Origin: Escherichia phage FL31
DNA: 64,000 bases
Sequence record: PP400782
Strand: one strand, 5' to 3'
Positions 9,993 to 33,023 of the stretch are shown piece after piece (position 1 is the first letter of the stretch; every line of letters starts with the position of its first letter). The translations under genes and the position numbers were made by a program. The notes beneath the pieces were generated by a model. It searched no databases. It saw only the letters and a program-made list of their open reading frames with translations, and had not been told where the DNA came from.

Positions 9993-10010
9993 GGAACTCC
10001 GAAGAGTTCC
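9993..10010 (-). terminator. Rho-independent terminator-like hairpin (UUCG loop) followed by U6 on the minus-strand transcript
   Basis: ggaactccgaagagttcc preceded on plus strand by aaaaaa; mRNA GGAACUC-UUCG-GAGUUCC-UUUUUU. Confidence 0.5.
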
Positions 10011-10183
10011 TATCCACATAGTACACCGTACAGAGGCTCATTTGAACTTTTAAATCGAATGGGCTTGTATGTAATAGTTCCTTCGGCTTTAGCTTTATCA
10101 TAAGACTCTTTAAAACGTCTCATTCTTTCTGCTTTGCCTTTACGGATTTTATCGAAATTTTCAGAAGTCGGGATGTTCGTCAT
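10010..10183 (-). CDS. Small hypothetical ORF (57 aa) not in the supplied track
   Basis: ATG at 10183 to TAG at 10012-10010 (MTNIPTSENFDKIRKGKAERMRRFKESYDK...), ends at the terminator hairpin. Confidence 0.3.
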   Translation of the reverse strand: MTNIPTSENFDKIRKGKAERMRRFKESYDKAKAEGTITYKPIRFKSSNEPLYGVLCG

Positions 10184-10222
10184 GCATAAGCACCTCTCAG
10201 AAAATGCCTAAATCAATTTCTC

Positions 10223-10429
10223 TCATCGTTTCCACCATTTCTTAACTTGAAATGAATCGGCCCACACGAGTTGTTTTGGGTCTGCCTTTACAATAGGCGG
10301 ACAAATTTCTGTAATAGAACCGTCGTGGTATTCCTTTTCAGAAATTTTAACACAAAGAGGACCTCCCAATTTAAGGGTGAACCCTGCGTTCAGCTTCAGA
10401 CGTTTAAACTTTATTTGAACTAGCGCCAT
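10223..10429 (-). CDS. Hypothetical small protein
   Basis: ORF in region where T4 carries a-gt; first ATG at 10429. Confidence 0.4.
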   Translation of the reverse strand: MALVQIKFKRLKLNAGFTLKLGGPLCVKISEKEYHDGSITEICPPIVKADPKQLVWADSFQVKKWWKR

Positions 10430-14134: not shown

Positions 14135-14605
14135 TTAATCATGTTTCCACACCCCATCGGTATTTGACCAAAGTCGCTGATTATCTGATCCTCGCCACAG
14201 TTTTTTGGTCGGAAGATTTTTCTCATACTTCCCATCAATAATAACATCAACATATTTAAGCATTTCTAGTTGTTTAATATCTTCAAACTTATATCCTGTC
14301 CACAACCAAATGCTTTTATTGGGATAAAGATTTTTAATAGTTTGAACCACAGAGTGAATCACATCTCTGTTATCAGGATAGAGAGGGTCTCCTCCGGTTA
14401 TAGTCAATCCTTCTATATAATCATTATTCAAGCATTCAATCAATTGTTCTAGTGTTTCACCAGTGAATGGAATACCATTTCTAGCATTCCATGTTGATTT
14501 ATTATAACACCCTTCGCATTTATGCAAACAACCTGTGACGAAAAGAACGACCCTGCAACCAGGGCCATTCACAAAATCACAAGGATAAAATCTATCATAA
14601 TTCAT
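14135..14605 (-). CDS. nrdG: Anaerobic ribonucleotide reductase activating protein NrdG (radical SAM)
   Basis: 156 aa; CxxxCxxC cluster (CLHKCEGCYN), GGDP motif. Confidence 0.9.
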   Translation of the reverse strand: MNYDRFYPCDFVNGPGCRVVLFVTGCLHKCEGCYNKSTWNARNGIPFTGETLEQLIECLNNDYIEGLTITGGDPLYPDNRDVIHSVVQTIKNLYPNKSIWLWTGYKFEDIKQLEMLKYVDVIIDGKYEKNLPTKKLWRGSDNQRLWSNTDGVWKHD

Positions 14606-16419
14606 TGGTGTTTAACCCTATGCATGATTTCTTTATTTTTACCGAGATTAAATCCACGTTCGTTCGGATTTCCCAAATAACCGCATGTTCTTCTTATGGT
14701 GTTCATCTTTTTAGGATCAGTTTCTCCGCAAACTGAACAAACAAATCCATTTTCAGTAGGAGTCATCTCATGGGTACTTCCACACGTAAAACATTTATCT
14801 ACTGGCATATTAACACCAAAATAATCTAAATGTTGTGCAGCATAATCCCAGACGGCCTCAAGTCCTTTTAAGTTATTTTTCATATCAGGAAGTTCAACAT
14901 AAGAAATGTGACCACCTGTCGCAATGAAATGATATGGCGCTTCACGAGAAATCTTTTCAAACGGAGTAATATTTTCTTCTACTGAAACATGGAAACTATT
15001 AGTGTACCAGCCTTTATCAGTGACATCCTTTACACTTCCATATTTTTCTGTATCAAGTTTACAGAAGCGATAACAAAGGTTTTCAGCAGGAGTCGAATAT
15101 AAACTAAAAGCAAATCCAGTTCTTTCAGTCCACTGTTTAAGATGAGCATTCATTTTAGTTAAAATTTCTTGCCCAATATCGCGACCGACAAGAATATTCA
15201 ATTCGTGAATACCAATGTATCCCAAAGACACTGAACTTCTACCGTTTTTAAATAACTCAATTATGTCGTCATCAGGTTTAAGACGAACCCCGAATGCACC
15301 TTCTTGGTAAAGAATAGGAGCTACAGTTGCTTTAACACCCTTTAAAGAACTAATTCTGCACATCAAGGCTTCAAAACACAGGTCCATTCGCTCATCAAAC
15401 AATTCAGTAAATTTCTGTTCATTGAACTGTGTTCCAATATAAGAATCTAACGCGATACGAGGAAGATTCAGTGTTACAACACCAAGATTATTGCGTCCAT
15501 CAAGAATTTCATTGCCAGTTGAATCTTTCCATACGCTCAAGAAACTACGGCAGCCCATTGGAGAAACTGGAACTGAAGAACCGGTAATAGCTTTATTATT
15601 CTTAGCTGAAATAATATCAGGATACATCCTTTTGCTTGCGCACTCTAAAGCAAGTTGCTTAATGTCGTAATTCGGATCGTCTTTATAAAGATTAACGCCT
15701 TCTTCAACGAACATAACAAGCTTAGGGAAAATAGGAGTTATTCCATCACGACCAAGGCCTTTAATACGATTTTTCAGAATTGCTTTCTGAATCATTCGTT
15801 CAGTCCAGTCAGTTCCTGTTCCAAATGTTATAGTAACAAAAGGAGTTTGACCGTTTGAGCTAAAAAGAGTATTTACTTCATACTCATAAGCTTGAAATGC
15901 GTCATAGACATCTTTTTCTGTTTTGGATTGAGCATAATTCAACGCATCGGCGATTTGCCATTTTTCTGCATCCTCAATATGTTTTGCATAGGTGCGTTTA
16001 ACATAAGGAGAAAGTACTTTATCTACATTAGCAAAAGTCGTTCCGCCATATTGGTGAGAAGCAACCTGTGCAGTAATTTGTGCCATAATTGCAGTAGCAA
16101 CGCCAATTGATTTAGGAGTTTCAATCTGTGCATTACCAAGCTTAAATCCGTTCTCAAGCATTCCTTTTAAATCTACTAAACAGCAATTAGTAAATGGAAG
16201 AGCAGGGGAATAATCAATATCGTGGAAATGGATAATTCCGCTTTCATGTGCTTTCATAATAAAAGACGGGACCATATTTTTGGCAATGTGTTTAGACACA
16301 ATACCAGCCATAAGGTCCCGTTGAGTTGGAAAAACACGAGAATCTTTATTAGCATTCTCGTTTAAAAGGTCTTTATTAGTTTTATTAATCAGTCCTTCAA
16401 TTTCTTTTTCAATTTTCAT
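14602..16419 (-). CDS. nrdD: Anaerobic ribonucleoside-triphosphate reductase NrdD, uninterrupted
   Basis: 605 aa continuous ORF; C-terminal zinc-ribbon CFTCGSTHEM...CSVCG and glycyl radical motif RRTCGYLG. Confidence 0.95.
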   Translation of the reverse strand: MKIEKEIEGLINKTNKDLLNENANKDSRVFPTQRDLMAGIVSKHIAKNMVPSFIMKAHESGIIHFHDIDYSPALPFTNCCLVDLKGMLENGFKLGNAQIETPKSIGVATAIMAQITAQVASHQYGGTTFANVDKVLSPYVKRTYAKHIEDAEKWQIADALNYAQSKTEKDVYDAFQAYEYEVNTLFSSNGQTPFVTITFGTGTDWTERMIQKAILKNRIKGLGRDGITPIFPKLVMFVEEGVNLYKDDPNYDIKQLALECASKRMYPDIISAKNNKAITGSSVPVSPMGCRSFLSVWKDSTGNEILDGRNNLGVVTLNLPRIALDSYIGTQFNEQKFTELFDERMDLCFEALMCRISSLKGVKATVAPILYQEGAFGVRLKPDDDIIELFKNGRSSVSLGYIGIHELNILVGRDIGQEILTKMNAHLKQWTERTGFAFSLYSTPAENLCYRFCKLDTEKYGSVKDVTDKGWYTNSFHVSVEENITPFEKISREAPYHFIATGGHISYVELPDMKNNLKGLEAVWDYAAQHLDYFGVNMPVDKCFTCGSTHEMTPTENGFVCSVCGETDPKKMNTIRRTCGYLGNPNERGFNLGKNKEIMHRVKHQ

Positions 16420-28608: not shown

Positions 28609-29147
28609 TCTTTTATTTCCAGTAGTTTATTTGATTTAAGGTAATTAGCCTTTTCTAGGACTTCAGAAGCATATTTACTTCCAGCACTTGTCTTCCATCC
28701 AGCATTATATGAGGATATAGCTTTTCTTATATCCCCGTTATGTATATTTAACCAATAAGAAAATTCGATATAAGCCCATCTGGCTGAATTAGACCGCTTA
28801 GATAGCATTTTCTTAATTTGGGCATCAGTCATATTATAACCAAGCTGGTTAATTCTTGCCCTCATTGTTGGTAGATAATTTTGGAACATTCCATACGCAT
28901 GGTGACCTTTCTTATCTTTAAGATTAATACCGGCAGATGATTCCTGCCATAGTATTGCGGCCATTATGTATCCAAGTCCTTTCTTATGCATATTTTCATG
29001 CGTTTTAAATTTTCCGTCCTTAGAAAACTGTTCCCCAAACTGATAAGCATAATTCAAGTTATCGAGTTGGACATTACTAAAAGTATGCTCGGAGCTATGT
29101 GCTGATAATGAAAGAGCAAATAGACCAGCGAGTAGTGCTTTTCTCAT
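28605..29147 (-). CDS. Secreted lytic-transglycosylase-like (SLT domain) protein
   Basis: Signal peptide MRKALLAGLFALSLSAHS; WQESS (catalytic E-S), AYGMFQ, SYNAGW motifs. Confidence 0.6.
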   Translation of the reverse strand: MRKALLAGLFALSLSAHSSEHTFSNVQLDNLNYAYQFGEQFSKDGKFKTHENMHKKGLGYIMAAILWQESSAGINLKDKKGHHAYGMFQNYLPTMRARINQLGYNMTDAQIKKMLSKRSNSARWAYIEFSYWLNIHNGDIRKAISSYNAGWKTSAGSKYASEVLEKANYLKSNKLLEIKE

Positions 29148-29155
29148 GTTTACCT

Positions 29156-29614
29156 CTAGATTTTAATCACTGCTTTAGAAGCTTTTCCTGGTAGTCGTTT
29201 ACTGTTAATAATAGCCATTCTGCATTGAAGAGTCTTCATTTTGAATGCCGGATTTTCGCGACAAACTGTAAGTCCTAACCAAAGATTTCCGTCAGTTATT
29301 TCTAAACGGCCCGGGCGATATTCGACACCTTCGTCAAAATCTTCATCAACATCTGGACGTGCCGGCATTGATAAAAATTCTGCAACTTCTTTAACATGAT
29401 TTTTTACTTTATGAAATAATTCAAAAACGTAATTCTCATCTATTTCTCTCTGGATGGCACGATCTAAGAGATGCTGAGAATACTTGATATGAAAGCCTGG
29501 TAGTCCAAGAGACTTTGCAGCATCTTTTATACCGGCATTTATTTTGCGGAACTCCGTTTCAAAGATTCGACGGAGTTTATTACGGCGGATAAAAACTTCC
29601 GAATTGATAGTCAT
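29156..29614 (-). CDS. regB: Endoribonuclease RegB
   Basis: ATG at 29614 with GAGGAG RBS; MTINSEVFIRRNKLRR... resembles recalled T4 RegB. Confidence 0.8.
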   Translation of the reverse strand: MTINSEVFIRRNKLRRIFETEFRKINAGIKDAAKSLGLPGFHIKYSQHLLDRAIQREIDENYVFELFHKVKNHVKEVAEFLSMPARPDVDEDFDEGVEYRPGRLEITDGNLWLGLTVCRENPAFKMKTLQCRMAIINSKRLPGKASKAVIKI

Positions 29615-29625
29615 TTTGATTTCTC

Positions 29626-29671
29626 CTCTAGTTGACAAGTCTATAGTAACACAACTAGAGGAGAAGTAAAC
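29626..29671 (-). promoter_or_regulatory. PeSL-like early promoter with perfect 10-bp inverted repeat; drives regB
   Basis: Minus strand GTTTAC-TTCTCCTCTAGTTGTGT-TACTAT; arms CCTCTAGTTG/CAACTAGAGG, downstream arm includes the regB Shine-Dalgarno. Confidence 0.6.
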
Positions 29672-29675
29672 TACT

Positions 29676-29891
29676 TTATTGATAAAACGGAGTTAAAGCC
29701 CAAGATTCTTTAGATACTATATTGGCGAAACGCCTCATCTCTTCGATTTGGCGTCGACGCTGATCAGCATAGTCTTCTTCGCCTTCTTCCTTACAATCTT
29801 CAAGGTCTTCTTCAAGATACTTTAAGTATTCACTACAAATTTTGTTGACCTTTTCTTGAAAGTCCAATAACCCAGTAATAGTAGAAGCCAT
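29676..29891 (-). CDS. Hypothetical small acidic protein
   Basis: 71 aa ORF. Confidence 0.45.
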   Translation of the reverse strand: MASTITGLLDFQEKVNKICSEYLKYLEEDLEDCKEEGEEDYADQRRRQIEEMRRFANIVSKESWALTPFYQ

Positions 29892-30325
29892 TAGTATTTT
29901 TCCTCAGGTCGAAATACCGCACGACATGCCCACATGCTGGCTTCTTTTAGATGTTGCTTAGCATACTTAAGAGCCTGCACTGCATCCATATCTTCTTTGG
30001 TTTGTTGCTCTGTTTCATTTTCTTTCAAGATATATGCTTCTTCAATCAGAGCATCAAACAACAATCCAAGACGGACTTCGGCATCTTTAATAGCGTTCAC
30101 TTTACCGATTTTATCATCGGTATGCGGCTTGTAGCCTTTGATGTCTTCAATCGACATAAGGAATTTCCTCATCGGTGGCAAGGTCATATTCGACAAATTG
30201 GATAGGCTTATTAATACCATATCCACGTACAGTGATATCAGTTGTCGGGTAGTTTCCAGTAATATCACCCATTCTAAATGATTCAATGAATGATTGCTCG
30301 CCTGGGCAAGTAAACCAGGCGGCAA
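29891..30325 (-). CDS. Hypothetical protein (start uncertain)
   Basis: 144 aa track ORF overlaps the 30147-30371 ORF; internal Met (MSIEDIKGY...) may be the true start. Confidence 0.35.
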   Translation of the reverse strand: MPPGLLAQASNHSLNHLEWVILLETTRQLISLYVDMVLISLSNLSNMTLPPMRKFLMSIEDIKGYKPHTDDKIGKVNAIKDAEVRLGLLFDALIEEAYILKENETEQQTKEDMDAVQALKYAKQHLKEASMWACRAVFRPEEKY

Positions 30326-30371
30326 AACATTTTAAAACATCTTCAGACCCTTCTATAAACAATTTAGCCAT
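30147..30371 (-). CDS. Hypothetical small protein
   Basis: 74 aa ORF. Confidence 0.4.
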   Translation of the reverse strand: MAKLFIEGSEDVLKCFAAWFTCPGEQSFIESFRMGDITGNYPTTDITVRGYGINKPIQFVEYDLATDEEIPYVD

Positions 30372-30733
30372 TATAGACTCTCAGTAAAGGTGCGAGCGAT
30401 AACGTCACGCTGCTGTTCCGGAGTCAGAGAGTTAAAGCGAACTGCATAACCGGATACACGGATGGTCAGCTGCGGATATTTTTCCGGATGCTTAACTGCA
30501 TCTTCCAGAGTTTCACGACGCAGAACGTTAACGTTTAGATGTTGTCCACCTTCAATTTTAACTTTAGGTTGATGTTCAATTTCAATTTCACGGGCATTCA
30601 AACCGTAGAAAATTTCTGGGTCTACAATAGCGTCTTCTTTAAAAGTTTTAGAGACAATAATCCGGGCTTGAGTACCGTCTTCAAAATAAATAGTGCCTTT
30701 GTGTGTGCCTTCAAGAATTTGATATGCTTTCAT
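30371..30733 (-). CDS. Autonomous glycyl radical cofactor (GrcA/YfiD-like; T4 Y06I-type)
   Basis: C-terminal [29 protein letters not shown] glycyl-radical signature. Confidence 0.8.
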
Positions 30734-30739
30734 ATAACC

Positions 30740-31048
30740 TCAATTAGAAAATAAATTTATCCAAGTTTTTTCTTTAATCAAAAATGGGTCGGAATTAAAC
30801 GCCATTAAACTTTGAGTGATTAATCCCTTAAATGGCCCATCAATAAATTCCATTTTGAAATGTGGAATACTAGTCATCAACCGTGCATTAGGAGCAGTAC
30901 AAAGAACCTGCTGCCCTGCGAACGGTCCTTTAGTCAAACGGTATCGTTTAGGTTTAAAATGGTAAATCTCGTAATTTTCTACAAGAGCCATTTTATTGCA
31001 TACTGGGCTGTTATAACAATATTCAAAAACTTCAATAGTGGTCATCAT
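30740..31048 (-). CDS. Hypothetical protein
   Basis: 102 aa ORF. Confidence 0.45.
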   Translation of the reverse strand: MMTTIEVFEYCYNSPVCNKMALVENYEIYHFKPKRYRLTKGPFAGQQVLCTAPNARLMTSIPHFKMEFIDGPFKGLITQSLMAFNSDPFLIKEKTWINLFSN

Positions 31049-31584
31049 TGCATTCCAATCACAAAAAATTGAGGACGAGCATTACCGCCGATGCAATATT
31101 TGCTTTTGCAACAGTGTTGGACTGTTTTAATATGCACATTGTAAATCTTATCCATATCAGGAGCTTTAATAGGCTCGTCAATTATGTACAGAATACGAGA
31201 AAGCGTTAATCCACGGAATTTAGAACCTTCATTGCCAATAAAACTACGAACAGAATCAGTAAATAAACGGAATCGAATATCGTCGCTAGAATAACGAGAA
31301 AATTCTTTTTTAATGTTGCAGGCAGAAATTTTAGCATAAGCTGAAGTATTAGAAAGAACAATAACTGTTCCACCATCATACAGCCAATTAACAGCAAAAT
31401 TAGTTACTGCGGTCGATTTACCTGATTGTCTGCCGCCGTCTAAACGAAGTGTACAGTACTGCTTGAGTACGTCTTCAAATGGTGGGACATAACCGTTCTT
31501 ACAAATTTCTTCTACTCTAGCATCAGAATGGTGTGTAAAAGCATTCATCAGGGATAGATAAGGACCAGTTAAAAATGTTCTCAT
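31045..31584 (-). CDS. P-loop NTPase of unknown function
   Basis: GGRQSGKST (Walker A), ILYIIDEP (Walker B). Confidence 0.55.
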   Translation of the reverse strand: MRTFLTGPYLSLMNAFTHHSDARVEEICKNGYVPPFEDVLKQYCTLRLDGGRQSGKSTAVTNFAVNWLYDGGTVIVLSNTSAYAKISACNIKKEFSRYSSDDIRFRLFTDSVRSFIGNEGSKFRGLTLSRILYIIDEPIKAPDMDKIYNVHIKTVQHCCKSKYCIGGNARPQFFVIGMQ

Positions 31585-31697
31585 TTAGTTTCTCTTTTAG
31601 GTTGGGCCATTCCGTGGCGCATGAATTGTCCATTTCTGTATTTACCCCTCCAAGTAATTATGAATATACTATCACAATTCTAGGAGAAAGTAAACTG

Positions 31698-32000
31698 TTA
31701 TTTATCTTTAATTACTTTAGCTGCTTCGATAGCCGCTTGCTGAAGGTCATCCATAGACATACCGAATTTAGAAGCAAAGTTATCAATTTTCTTTTCGACA
31801 GCATTCAAAGGCTTGGCCTGTTTACCTTCATTAGCGCCAGGAAGAGCGAGAATACGCTCTTTGTCAATATAAAGGCTTACAAGTTTCTTACGGTCTTTAT
31901 CGGACAAATCATGAAATGAATGGGCCTTTTTATTTATAGCGGCTTCTAATTTACCTGCACTCACTCGCGCTTCAGTAATAAATTCTTGATATGTTTTCAT
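31698..32000 (-). CDS. ipII: Internal protein II-like (capsid targeting sequence)
   Basis: 100 aa; N-terminal MKTYQEFITEA capsid-targeting motif. Confidence 0.7.
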   Translation of the reverse strand: MKTYQEFITEARVSAGKLEAAINKKAHSFHDLSDKDRKKLVSLYIDKERILALPGANEGKQAKPLNAVEKKIDNFASKFGMSMDDLQQAAIEAAKVIKDK

Positions 32001-32041
32001 ATGTTTCCTTTAAATGTAAATAGGTCTGAGTATTAGCTTTA

Positions 32042-32620
32042 TTAGGAATTACGGGCTGCATTAGCAACGGCGTAAGCGTACTGAACATTAGCGTCTTTAA
32101 ACGTGCCCTTAGTTGTATCTAGTTCTACCTTAAAACCGCCTTTAGCCATAACATCGGCAAATTCTTTACGGAAAGCCATTGCATCAAGACCTTTCCATGA
32201 TGATTTATGCTTGGCAAATTCAAGACCTGCGAAGTTGACAGCTTTAGCTAATTTATTATCAATGACCCATTTACCTGCTTTAGGCACAAACTTCGGACCT
32301 TTTTGTTTAGAGAACAGTTTTAAATTCCAGCGACGAAGGTCACTGTCGGCTTTAACAAAAGCTGCGTCTAAGTTACTAGCAACAACATCTTCAATATGAG
32401 CAAATTTAAGTCCGTCAACTTCAATATTTAGATCATTACGCCAGCGTAGTCCTTCCCAAGCGAAGGCTTTAAAGTCGGAAGCCTTTGTAGCTAAGTACCG
32501 TTCAATAGGAGCAGTTTTAGGGTCAAAGCCGTTTCCGCCACGATAAGTCCACTCGTCTTTATTAATGCCTTGAGCTTTTCCTGCAAAGGCCTCGGCGATA
32601 AATTCTTTATATGTTTTCAT
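32042..32620 (-). CDS. ipIII: Internal protein III-like
   Basis: 192 aa; MKTYKEFIAEA N-terminus; size matches T4 IPIII. Confidence 0.7.
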   Translation of the reverse strand: MKTYKEFIAEAFAGKAQGINKDEWTYRGGNGFDPKTAPIERYLATKASDFKAFAWEGLRWRNDLNIEVDGLKFAHIEDVVASNLDAAFVKADSDLRRWNLKLFSKQKGPKFVPKAGKWVIDNKLAKAVNFAGLEFAKHKSSWKGLDAMAFRKEFADVMAKGGFKVELDTTKGTFKDANVQYAYAVANAARNS

Positions 32621-32645
32621 TTTGTTCCTATTGATTTAATTTATG

Positions 32646-32960
32646 TTATTCTTTAGGGAAGTTTTTAGAGTATGCGTCATAAAGTTTATTACCGATGCGA
32701 CGGAAGACTTTAGCTGCAAAACGGTTTTCAGGGTTTTTAATCATGATTTGCATCATGTAAGTTCCTGCATCCGAAAGAGCTTCTTCATAGTACCCATTAA
32801 TTTCTTTAAGAGTCCTACGTTTACCACCAGGACCATCAACAGTAATTTTCCATTTACCAGTAGAAGTGCGGCTCGGTGGTTCAACTTGTTCAATCCAAAT
32901 ATAACCACCTTCAACGCGTTGGTTGGCGGATTCTGCAATAAATTCTTTATACGTTTTCAT
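32646..32960 (-). CDS. Internal-protein-like protein (CTS-bearing)
   Basis: MKTYKEFIAES N-terminus, 104 aa. Confidence 0.6.
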   Translation of the reverse strand: MKTYKEFIAESANQRVEGGYIWIEQVEPPSRTSTGKWKITVDGPGGKRRTLKEINGYYEEALSDAGTYMMQIMIKNPENRFAAKVFRRIGNKLYDAYSKNFPKE

Positions 32961-33023
32961 TTTTGTTTCCTTGTTTGTTTTGATAGAGTAATTATACCAT
33001 ATTAATACTTAAGCGTAAACAAT

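Follow-up and report, generated by a model that had tools for sequence, protein, structure and literature searches.

The 64,000-nt stretch of Escherichia phage FL31 DNA analysed here (PP400782; hereafter the window) encodes a 120-aa homologue of the T4 protein Vs.6 that is probably a functional phage GrcA/YfiD spare part, activated by the host pyruvate formate-lyase (PFL) activase PflA and rescuing host PFL. Its gene is a mosaic at the DNA level, in which a 3' half of apparent Escherichia grcA origin follows an older phage-lineage 5' half. This host-derived tract adds modestly to the evolutionary picture and does not amount to a new kind of system.

Domain architecture of the vs.6-like protein

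The vs.6-like gene, with an ATG start and a TAA stop on the minus strand, is closely packed with neighbours running in the same direction (Table 1). A promoter and terminator scan of positions 29000-33000 returned nothing usable (6 promoter-like sites compared to 11.1±3.1 expected), and the gene is viewed as one member of the packed series of co-directional genes. Two genes downstream, the vs.4 homologue (66% identical to T4 Vs.4) carries a Pfam Acb2/Tad1 hairpin domain (4.4e-18), characteristic of the anti-CBASS cyclic-nucleotide sponge family.

Gly_radical (PF01228) was the sole Pfam domain of the 120-aa protein (E = 2e-18; 67.3 bits, cutoff 22.2), with model positions 64-106 of 106 aligned to residues 59-101. 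The candidate radical glycine is G95 (codon GGT at 30449-30451), within RVSGY at residues 92-96, and the RVSGYAV loop is the same in the vs.6-like protein, in GrcA and in PflB around G734. The NMR structure of E. coli GrcA (6OWR) matched residues 21-120 (E = 2e-42), residues 60-120 being 100% identical to GrcA 67-127, while PflB matched residues 57-120 (E = 3e-26), with 49 of the 64 residues of PflB 696-759 identical in the C-terminal half (77%). The initial annotation had reported a C-terminal glycyl-radical signature typical of GrcA/YfiD, and the motif that it quoted is the exact end of the protein, G95 included. The alignment with E. coli GrcA that it proposed as a check gave the complete identity over residues 60-120, and in place of an absent radical glycine or a similarity limited to a short low-complexity stretch, G95 and the Gly_radical and 6OWR matches were found.

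The NCBIfam GrcA model TIGR04365 scored 159.1 bits (E = 6e-47, residues 18-120), narrowly short of its curated equivalog cutoff of 170 bits because the N-terminal half has diverged; RefSeq calls vs.6 orthologs GrcA despite this sub-cutoff score. The NCBIfam short-form models NF038360 (4.9e-31) and NF008341 (1.3e-27) also matched. The equivalog score excepted, the protein has the sequence features of the GrcA/YfiD family (InterPro IPR011140 / TIGR04365), being a small stand-alone radical-domain protein without a catalytic barrel, with the RVSGYAV loop, a C-terminal domain homologous to PFL 693-759 and GrcA 61-127, and homology in the N-terminal half. This last homology amounted to 35% identity across 40 aa with GrcA 28-67 (E = 3e-6), and a skeleton of QI near the start, ARxIVxK, FxED and RExxxE..P was common to phage and host N-terminal halves in an alignment of 24 sequences. 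Purifying selection acts on both halves of the gene: compared to the ortholog of the Klebsiella phage vB_KpnM-JEC (Jiaodavirus), dN/dS was 0.206/1.41 (~0.15) in the N-terminal half, and dN was ~0 in the C-terminal half.

Table 1. Position of the vs.6-like gene, its parts and other features of the window discussed in the text.
Feature	Position	Strand	Description and evidence
vs.6/grcA-like ORF	30371..30733	(-)	120 aa and stop; autonomous glycyl radical cofactor; ORF list, profile matches, T4 orthology
Shine-Dalgarno GAGG	30738..30741	(-)	4 nt 5' of the ATG; shares bases with the stop codon of the vs.7 homologue upstream; read from sequence
N-terminal half, codons 1-59	30557..30733	(-)	Phage-lineage, AT-rich (35% GC); homologous, with divergence, to the N-terminal half of GrcA, which is disordered
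C-terminal half, codons 60-120 and stop	30371..30556	(-)	Glycyl-radical domain; 47.5% GC; protein equals GrcA 67-127
RVSGYAV glycyl-radical loop, residues 92-98	30440..30460	(-)	Direct sequence reading
128-nt exact run with E. coli grcA	30408..30535	(-)	Gene positions 199-326; right-anchored comparison
vs.4 homologue	29891-30157	(-)	Acb2/Tad1 hairpin domain
ipII-like internal protein gene	31698-32000	(-)	
NrdG activase (radical SAM)	14135..14605	(-)	Pfam Fer4_12 7.2e-49, Radical_SAM 1.2e-7
NrdD anaerobic ribonucleotide reductase	14602..16419	(-)	Pfam NRDD 6.3e-172, Gly_radical 1.5e-25; uninterrupted

Orthology with T4 vs.6

The T4 ortholog is vs.6 (NP_049730; UniProt P13316, GRCA_BPT4; annotated as GrcA in RefSeq), and the gene order regB-vs.3-vs.4-vs.5-vs.6-vs.7-vs.8-denV is common to the window and T4. 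Its UniProt neighbours bear the names Y06G (P13314) and Y06J (P13317), and P13316 is therefore taken to be the former Y06I, the T4 homologue mentioned by the initial annotation, which proved to be 94% identical and embedded in the same gene order. The 2 kb around the vs.6-like gene were 97-98% identical to genomes of Mosigvirus, T4-type phages of E. coli, many records of which label the gene "autonomous glycyl radical cofactor", and the exact window protein is already present in public databases under that name. The gene identification is correct; it was known before, and annotation of the gene is widespread.

Host origin of the 3' half

At the DNA level, codons 60-120 were 95.2% identical to E. 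coli chromosomal grcA, with an exact run of 128 nt, and the 3' half of T4 vs.6 was 97.8% identical, with an exact run of 138 nt. Codons 1-59 were only ~54% identical and could not be aligned upstream of about codon 45. The GC content was 47.5% in the 3' half, compared to 35% in the 5' half and 37% in the whole window. A maximum chi-square analysis placed the breakpoint before phage codon 61, with 53.6% identity on its left and 95.6% on its right (permutation p ≤ 1e-4), and the dS relative to E. coli grcA was 1.11 left of the break and 0.20 right of it (dN of 0 in the C-terminal half). The break sits near the published 60/61 domain boundary of YfiD, six codons downstream of it.

The grcA genes of other genera reached at most 87.6% identity with the 3' half, and those of E. 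coli and Salmonella were 84.4% identical over the tract (dS = 0.98); these DNA comparisons place the source of the tract specifically in the Escherichia lineage. A total of 638 phage records matched the E. coli tract at 95% identity or more, with a maximum of 99.5%, whereas other phage lineages were 64-84% identical to the nearest host DNA. Slopekvirus-like loci (L095-097) encode identical C-terminal 60 residues at only 83% DNA identity, and the near-identity of the tract is therefore attributed to recency and not to selection at the protein level. Nucleotide-level constraint on the 128-nt exact run was also considered and rejected, as other phages vary at core positions 219, 228, 237, 249 and 282, and in old lineages the protein is unchanged although DNA identity is down to 83%. 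The Klebsiella phage JEC possesses an orthologous phage-type N-terminal half but a C-terminal half only 85% identical to E. coli, so that the N-terminal half predates the Escherichia tract. The 3' half thus appears to have been replaced by Escherichia grcA DNA after the T4/Mosigvirus lineage split from Jiaodavirus (Klebsiella T4-like phages).

No earlier description of this host tract at the DNA level, or of the split genealogy presented below, was found in the literature searched, and both may still have been reported elsewhere. With its near-identical Escherichia grcA tract joined in frame to an N-terminal half of old phage descent, and with apparently separate genealogies of the two, vs.6 documents DNA flow from host to lytic phage, here to hmC-containing T-even phages, and is a tractable locus for measuring this flow.

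Genealogies of the two halves within T-even phages

Between the window and T4, neighbouring genes differed with a dS of 0.7-2.5 and nucleotide identities of 46-85%, from which vs.6 stood out with 93% identity and a dS of 0.25. The high-identity tract extends from ~30384 to ~30900 and ends at the vs.6 stop codon. In a set of 13 alleles from Tequatrovirus and Mosigvirus, the N-terminal half showed 10 sites with fixed differences between the genera and 16 polymorphic ones, compared to 1 fixed and 19 polymorphic sites in the C-terminal half (Fisher p = 0.013), and in one intergeneric pair the dS was 0.40 in the former and 0.022 in the latter. The consensus of the 13 phage C-terminal halves matched E. 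coli at all sites but four at the edges (nt 178, 354, 357 and 358). For this small sample of 13 alleles, the patterns are suggestive of separate genealogies for the two halves of vs.6 in Tequatrovirus and Mosigvirus.

One tentative explanation, considered possible but rather doubtful, is that gene conversion in infected cells has replaced the C-terminal half, time after time, with chromosomal grcA sequence from the host of the moment, the refreshed alleles spreading between T-even genera. It fits the data because the phage consensus is close to the E. coli allele, fixed sites contrast between the halves, the dS of the intergeneric pair is low in the C-terminal half, and a Klebsiella phage has residues of the Klebsiella type; a stretch of 128-138 nt that matches the host chromosome exactly is available as a recombination substrate. 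If so, the phage radical domain would always match one that fits host PFL and PflA. The same data fit a single capture, after which the C-terminal half would have spread from phage to phage. The 5' junction was the same in all sampled Tequatrovirus and Mosigvirus alleles, which favours few exchange events; the Slopekvirus-like loci encode the E. coli-type protein at only 83% DNA identity. Monotonic conversion-tract endpoints at the 3' end were also sought, and the patterns at sites 354, 357, 358 and 360 were not monotonic.

Elsewhere in the region, the ipII-like internal protein gene was 96% identical to T4 at the nucleotide level (dS = 0.085; background identity 46-85%), and the vs.8 homologue contained patches of 100% identity to T4 at about 31322-31381 and 31502-31561. 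Both look like further recent exchanges between Mosigvirus and Tequatrovirus.

Distribution of homologues in phages

Homologues were found in 1,588 phage records, 1,534 of them full-length and intact at ≥80% coverage. Their carriers include T4-like phages that infect Escherichia, Klebsiella, Salmonella, Yersinia and Aeromonas, T5-like Demerecviridae, among them a T5-like phage with the grcA-like gene in its tRNA region, and 350-kb jumbo phages. Short phage forms were also detected (L120, L123, L125/L213). Three copies (JEC, L169 421-783; L100; L101) encode ETLLDAVEHPE, a variant of Klebsiella, Salmonella and Raoultella GrcA, in place of the E. coli-type sequence, and their DNA was about 0.8-0.9 dS from any sampled host. 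Strict tracking of the host by the C-terminal protein sequence was only partly supported, JEC and L100/L101 being of the Klebsiella/Salmonella type and the Slopekvirus-like L095-097 of the E. coli type.

Several candidate records were set aside. A locus (L112/L200) considered as a second recent host-derived phage copy proved to be a full-length Yersinia-type host grcA, flanked in L200 (9131-9583) by ung, grpE and nadK and adjoining prophage genes, and ten IMG/VR 'viral' matches (L241-L250) were C-termini of PflB and not phage grcA. Identical or near-identical phage GrcA proteins (P0010, P0012, P0013, P0015) are deposited as 'Escherichia coli', 'Salmonella enterica' and 'Enterococcus faecalis' on contigs of 165-169 kb, and a DNA match of 95-99% occurs in five 'complete genome' records of E. 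coli; such bacterial-labelled records are presumably T-even phage genomes inside bacterial assemblies.

The near-identity of the 3' half to the host chromosome and its retained host-like GC content would be compatible with a neutral passenger, that is, a fragment of host DNA acquired by recombination and functionless for the phage. This reading is extremely unlikely and is largely refuted by conservation: the full-length ORF is intact in the 1,534 records (≥80% coverage), across unrelated phage families, dN is ~0 in the C-terminal half and dN/dS ~0.15 in the N-terminal half, and the old lineages L095-097 retain an identical protein at 83% DNA identity. In addition, the T4 ortholog is strongly expressed and active in vitro.

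Spare-part function and proposed mechanism

According to Andorfer et al. (2021, PMC8683613), only two spare-part proteins have been validated, E. coli YfiD and T4 Y06I. According to passages of that paper citing Wagner et al. (2001), the PFL activase (PFL-AE) installs a glycyl radical on YfiD and Y06I, and both rescue O2-cleaved PFL. Residues 1-60 of YfiD are disordered and aid binding to cleaved PFL (cPFL) and radical installation, while residues 61-127 reproduce PFL 693-759, the segment replaced by the spare part (PMC8683613). By analogy with its 94%-identical T4 ortholog, the window protein would likewise be activated by PFL-AE and rescue cleaved PFL. The ability to restore oxygen-cleaved PFL that the initial annotation had attributed to this protein agrees with the reactivation reported for Y06I (PMC8683613). 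The role of the N-terminal half in cPFL binding was mapped on E. coli YfiD and may extend to the phage protein, in which this half is only about 35% identical.

In a proteomic time course of T4 infection, Vs.6 rose from 0 to an intensity of about 2e9, exceeding host GrcA (PMC9697503, supplement file 5), its RNA being classed as early and its protein as middle (PMC9697503). These data come from a standard and not an anaerobic culture, and document expression, not use. In the same infection, the intensity of host GRCA_ECOLI seemed to double, from 4.3e8 to 9.3e8, despite the shut-off of host synthesis, an apparent rise that is likely due to C-terminal tryptic peptides identical in host and phage GrcA. 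Such shared peptides call for caution in proteomic studies of infected cells.

In the proposed mechanism, the vs.6-like protein would be made early to mid infection, within the co-directional early gene array, and host PflA would install the radical on G95, on which it can be expected to act because the C-terminal 61 residues are those of host GrcA, with the RVSGYAV loop. The radical domain would then dock into host PFL whose C-terminal radical segment has been cut by O2 at G734, restoring the conversion of pyruvate to acetyl-CoA and formate. The diverged but conserved N-terminal half would be the counterpart of the disordered half of YfiD and improve cleaved-PFL binding and radical installation. 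Since T-even infection shuts off host gene expression, a phage copy may keep the PFL repair capacity supplied during infection, and the outcome would be that fermentation goes on yielding ATP and acetyl-CoA when oxygen is low or fluctuates. A benefit to the phage in vivo would follow. The vs.6-like gene would be a clear case of an auxiliary metabolic gene with which a phage repairs a host enzyme and does not encode the enzyme itself, and it suggests that PFL-dependent fermentation limits T-even phages in the gut.

The protein might instead donate its radical domain to intact but inactive PflB or TdcE, boosting or re-routing fermentation even under strictly anaerobic conditions. The phage protein exceeds the host GrcA level in T4 infection and its C-terminal half is the same as that of host GrcA, as this alternative would have it; passages of Andorfer et al. 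(PMC8683613), however, report features that preclude YfiD activation on undamaged PFL, and such a role is considered unlikely.

Genomic context of nrdD and nrdG

The initial annotation had pointed to the phage's own NrdD and NrdG 15 kb away, and both genes were indeed found on the same strand, about 14-16.6 kb off. The window nrdD is a single uninterrupted 605-aa ORF abutting nrdG; in T4, nrdD contains a group I intron with I-TevII, and the homing endonuclease gene mobC lies between nrdD and nrdG. The C-terminus of the window NrdD comprises a Cys4 zinc ribbon (CFTCGS...CSVCGE) before the radical segment RRTCGYLG. These NrdD-like features (a CxxC...CxxC zinc ribbon and an RxCGY loop) were looked for in the vs.6-like protein and were missing, and a BLASTP comparison of the vs.6-like protein with the window NrdD detected no similarity (best E = 6.3, radical loops unaligned).

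At the level of IMG/VR loci, nrdD or nrdG was absent from the 10-kb flanks of the grcA-like gene in 76 of 80 cases, and a general grcA-nrdDG linkage, seen in only 4 of the 80, was rejected. In the Erwinia jumbo phage pEa_SNUABM_50 (L171, 3995-4357) and in three Erwinia-type phages of roughly 350 kb (L196, L198, L199; about 10001-10345), nrdD and nrdG flank the grcA-like gene on either side, and a 235-kb phage (L213, 10001-10219) possesses a 73-aa short form after nrdD-nrdG, within 200 bp. From gene order, the jumbo-phage arrangement would reflect a co-placement of anaerobic-lifestyle genes in some lineages and is not evidence of NrdD repair. The vs.6-like gene may plausibly be viewed, together with nrdD and nrdG, as an anaerobic or microaerobic gene set, an idea that gains some support because jumbo phages place the grcA-like gene in the nrdD-nrdG cluster.

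In an alternative reading, the protein would serve the phage's own system, being activated by NrdG and/or replacing the O2-cleaved C-terminus of NrdD and so sustaining anaerobic dNTP synthesis; Nolan et al. (2006) had raised nucleotide metabolism as a speculative function. This reading would draw on the encoding of NrdD and NrdG by the same genome and on the two jumbo-phage lineages with the grcA-like gene inside or directly after nrdD-nrdG. It is nevertheless very unlikely, given the undetectable similarity to the window NrdD and the missing zinc ribbon, a C-terminal half that is that of host GrcA and 77% identical to the PflB C-terminus, the lack of nrdD/nrdG within 10 kb in most IMG/VR loci, and the PFL-AE activation and PFL rescue reported in the literature (PMC8683613). 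The broader suggestion of the initial annotation, that the phage maintains glycyl-radical enzyme function during infection, is supported for host PFL, through the T4 ortholog, but finds no support in the sequence as far as NrdD is concerned.

Comparison with known systems

The closest known system is T4 Vs.6, which, like the window protein, is 120 aa long with the same start and stop, and is identical at 113 of 120 residues (94%). The two genes occupy the same slot between the vs.5 and vs.7 homologues, downstream of regB, and in both the mosaic passes into E. coli-like DNA at codon 60. The seven differing residues (T4 state second) are T21I, A35S, I36F, N46H, H54P, K57T and R73H. Position 73 is R in the window protein and in E. 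coli GrcA but H in T4, and the C-terminal half of the window protein is consequently identical to that of host GrcA, whereas that of T4 is one residue off. At the DNA level, in contrast, the 3' half differs from E. coli at 9 positions in the window and at 4 in T4.

E. coli GrcA/YfiD (P68066; 6OWR) has the same architecture, an N-terminal half followed by the glycyl-radical domain. The window protein is seven residues shorter, its N-terminal half is ~35% identical over 40 aa, and its gene belongs to a 37% GC phage genome and to the phage early/middle programme, whereas E. coli grcA is under the host's own regulation. The C-terminal domain of PflB (residues 693-759; PDB 2PFL, 1H16) has the same radical loop and C-terminal helix region, but the window protein is a stand-alone 14-kDa protein without the roughly 690-residue barrel and the catalytic cysteines of PflB, and is therefore no enzyme by itself. 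Finally, the short GrcA2/GrcA3-type and phage forms (about 60-80 aa) possess the same radical domain without the N-terminal half, which is conserved in the window protein.
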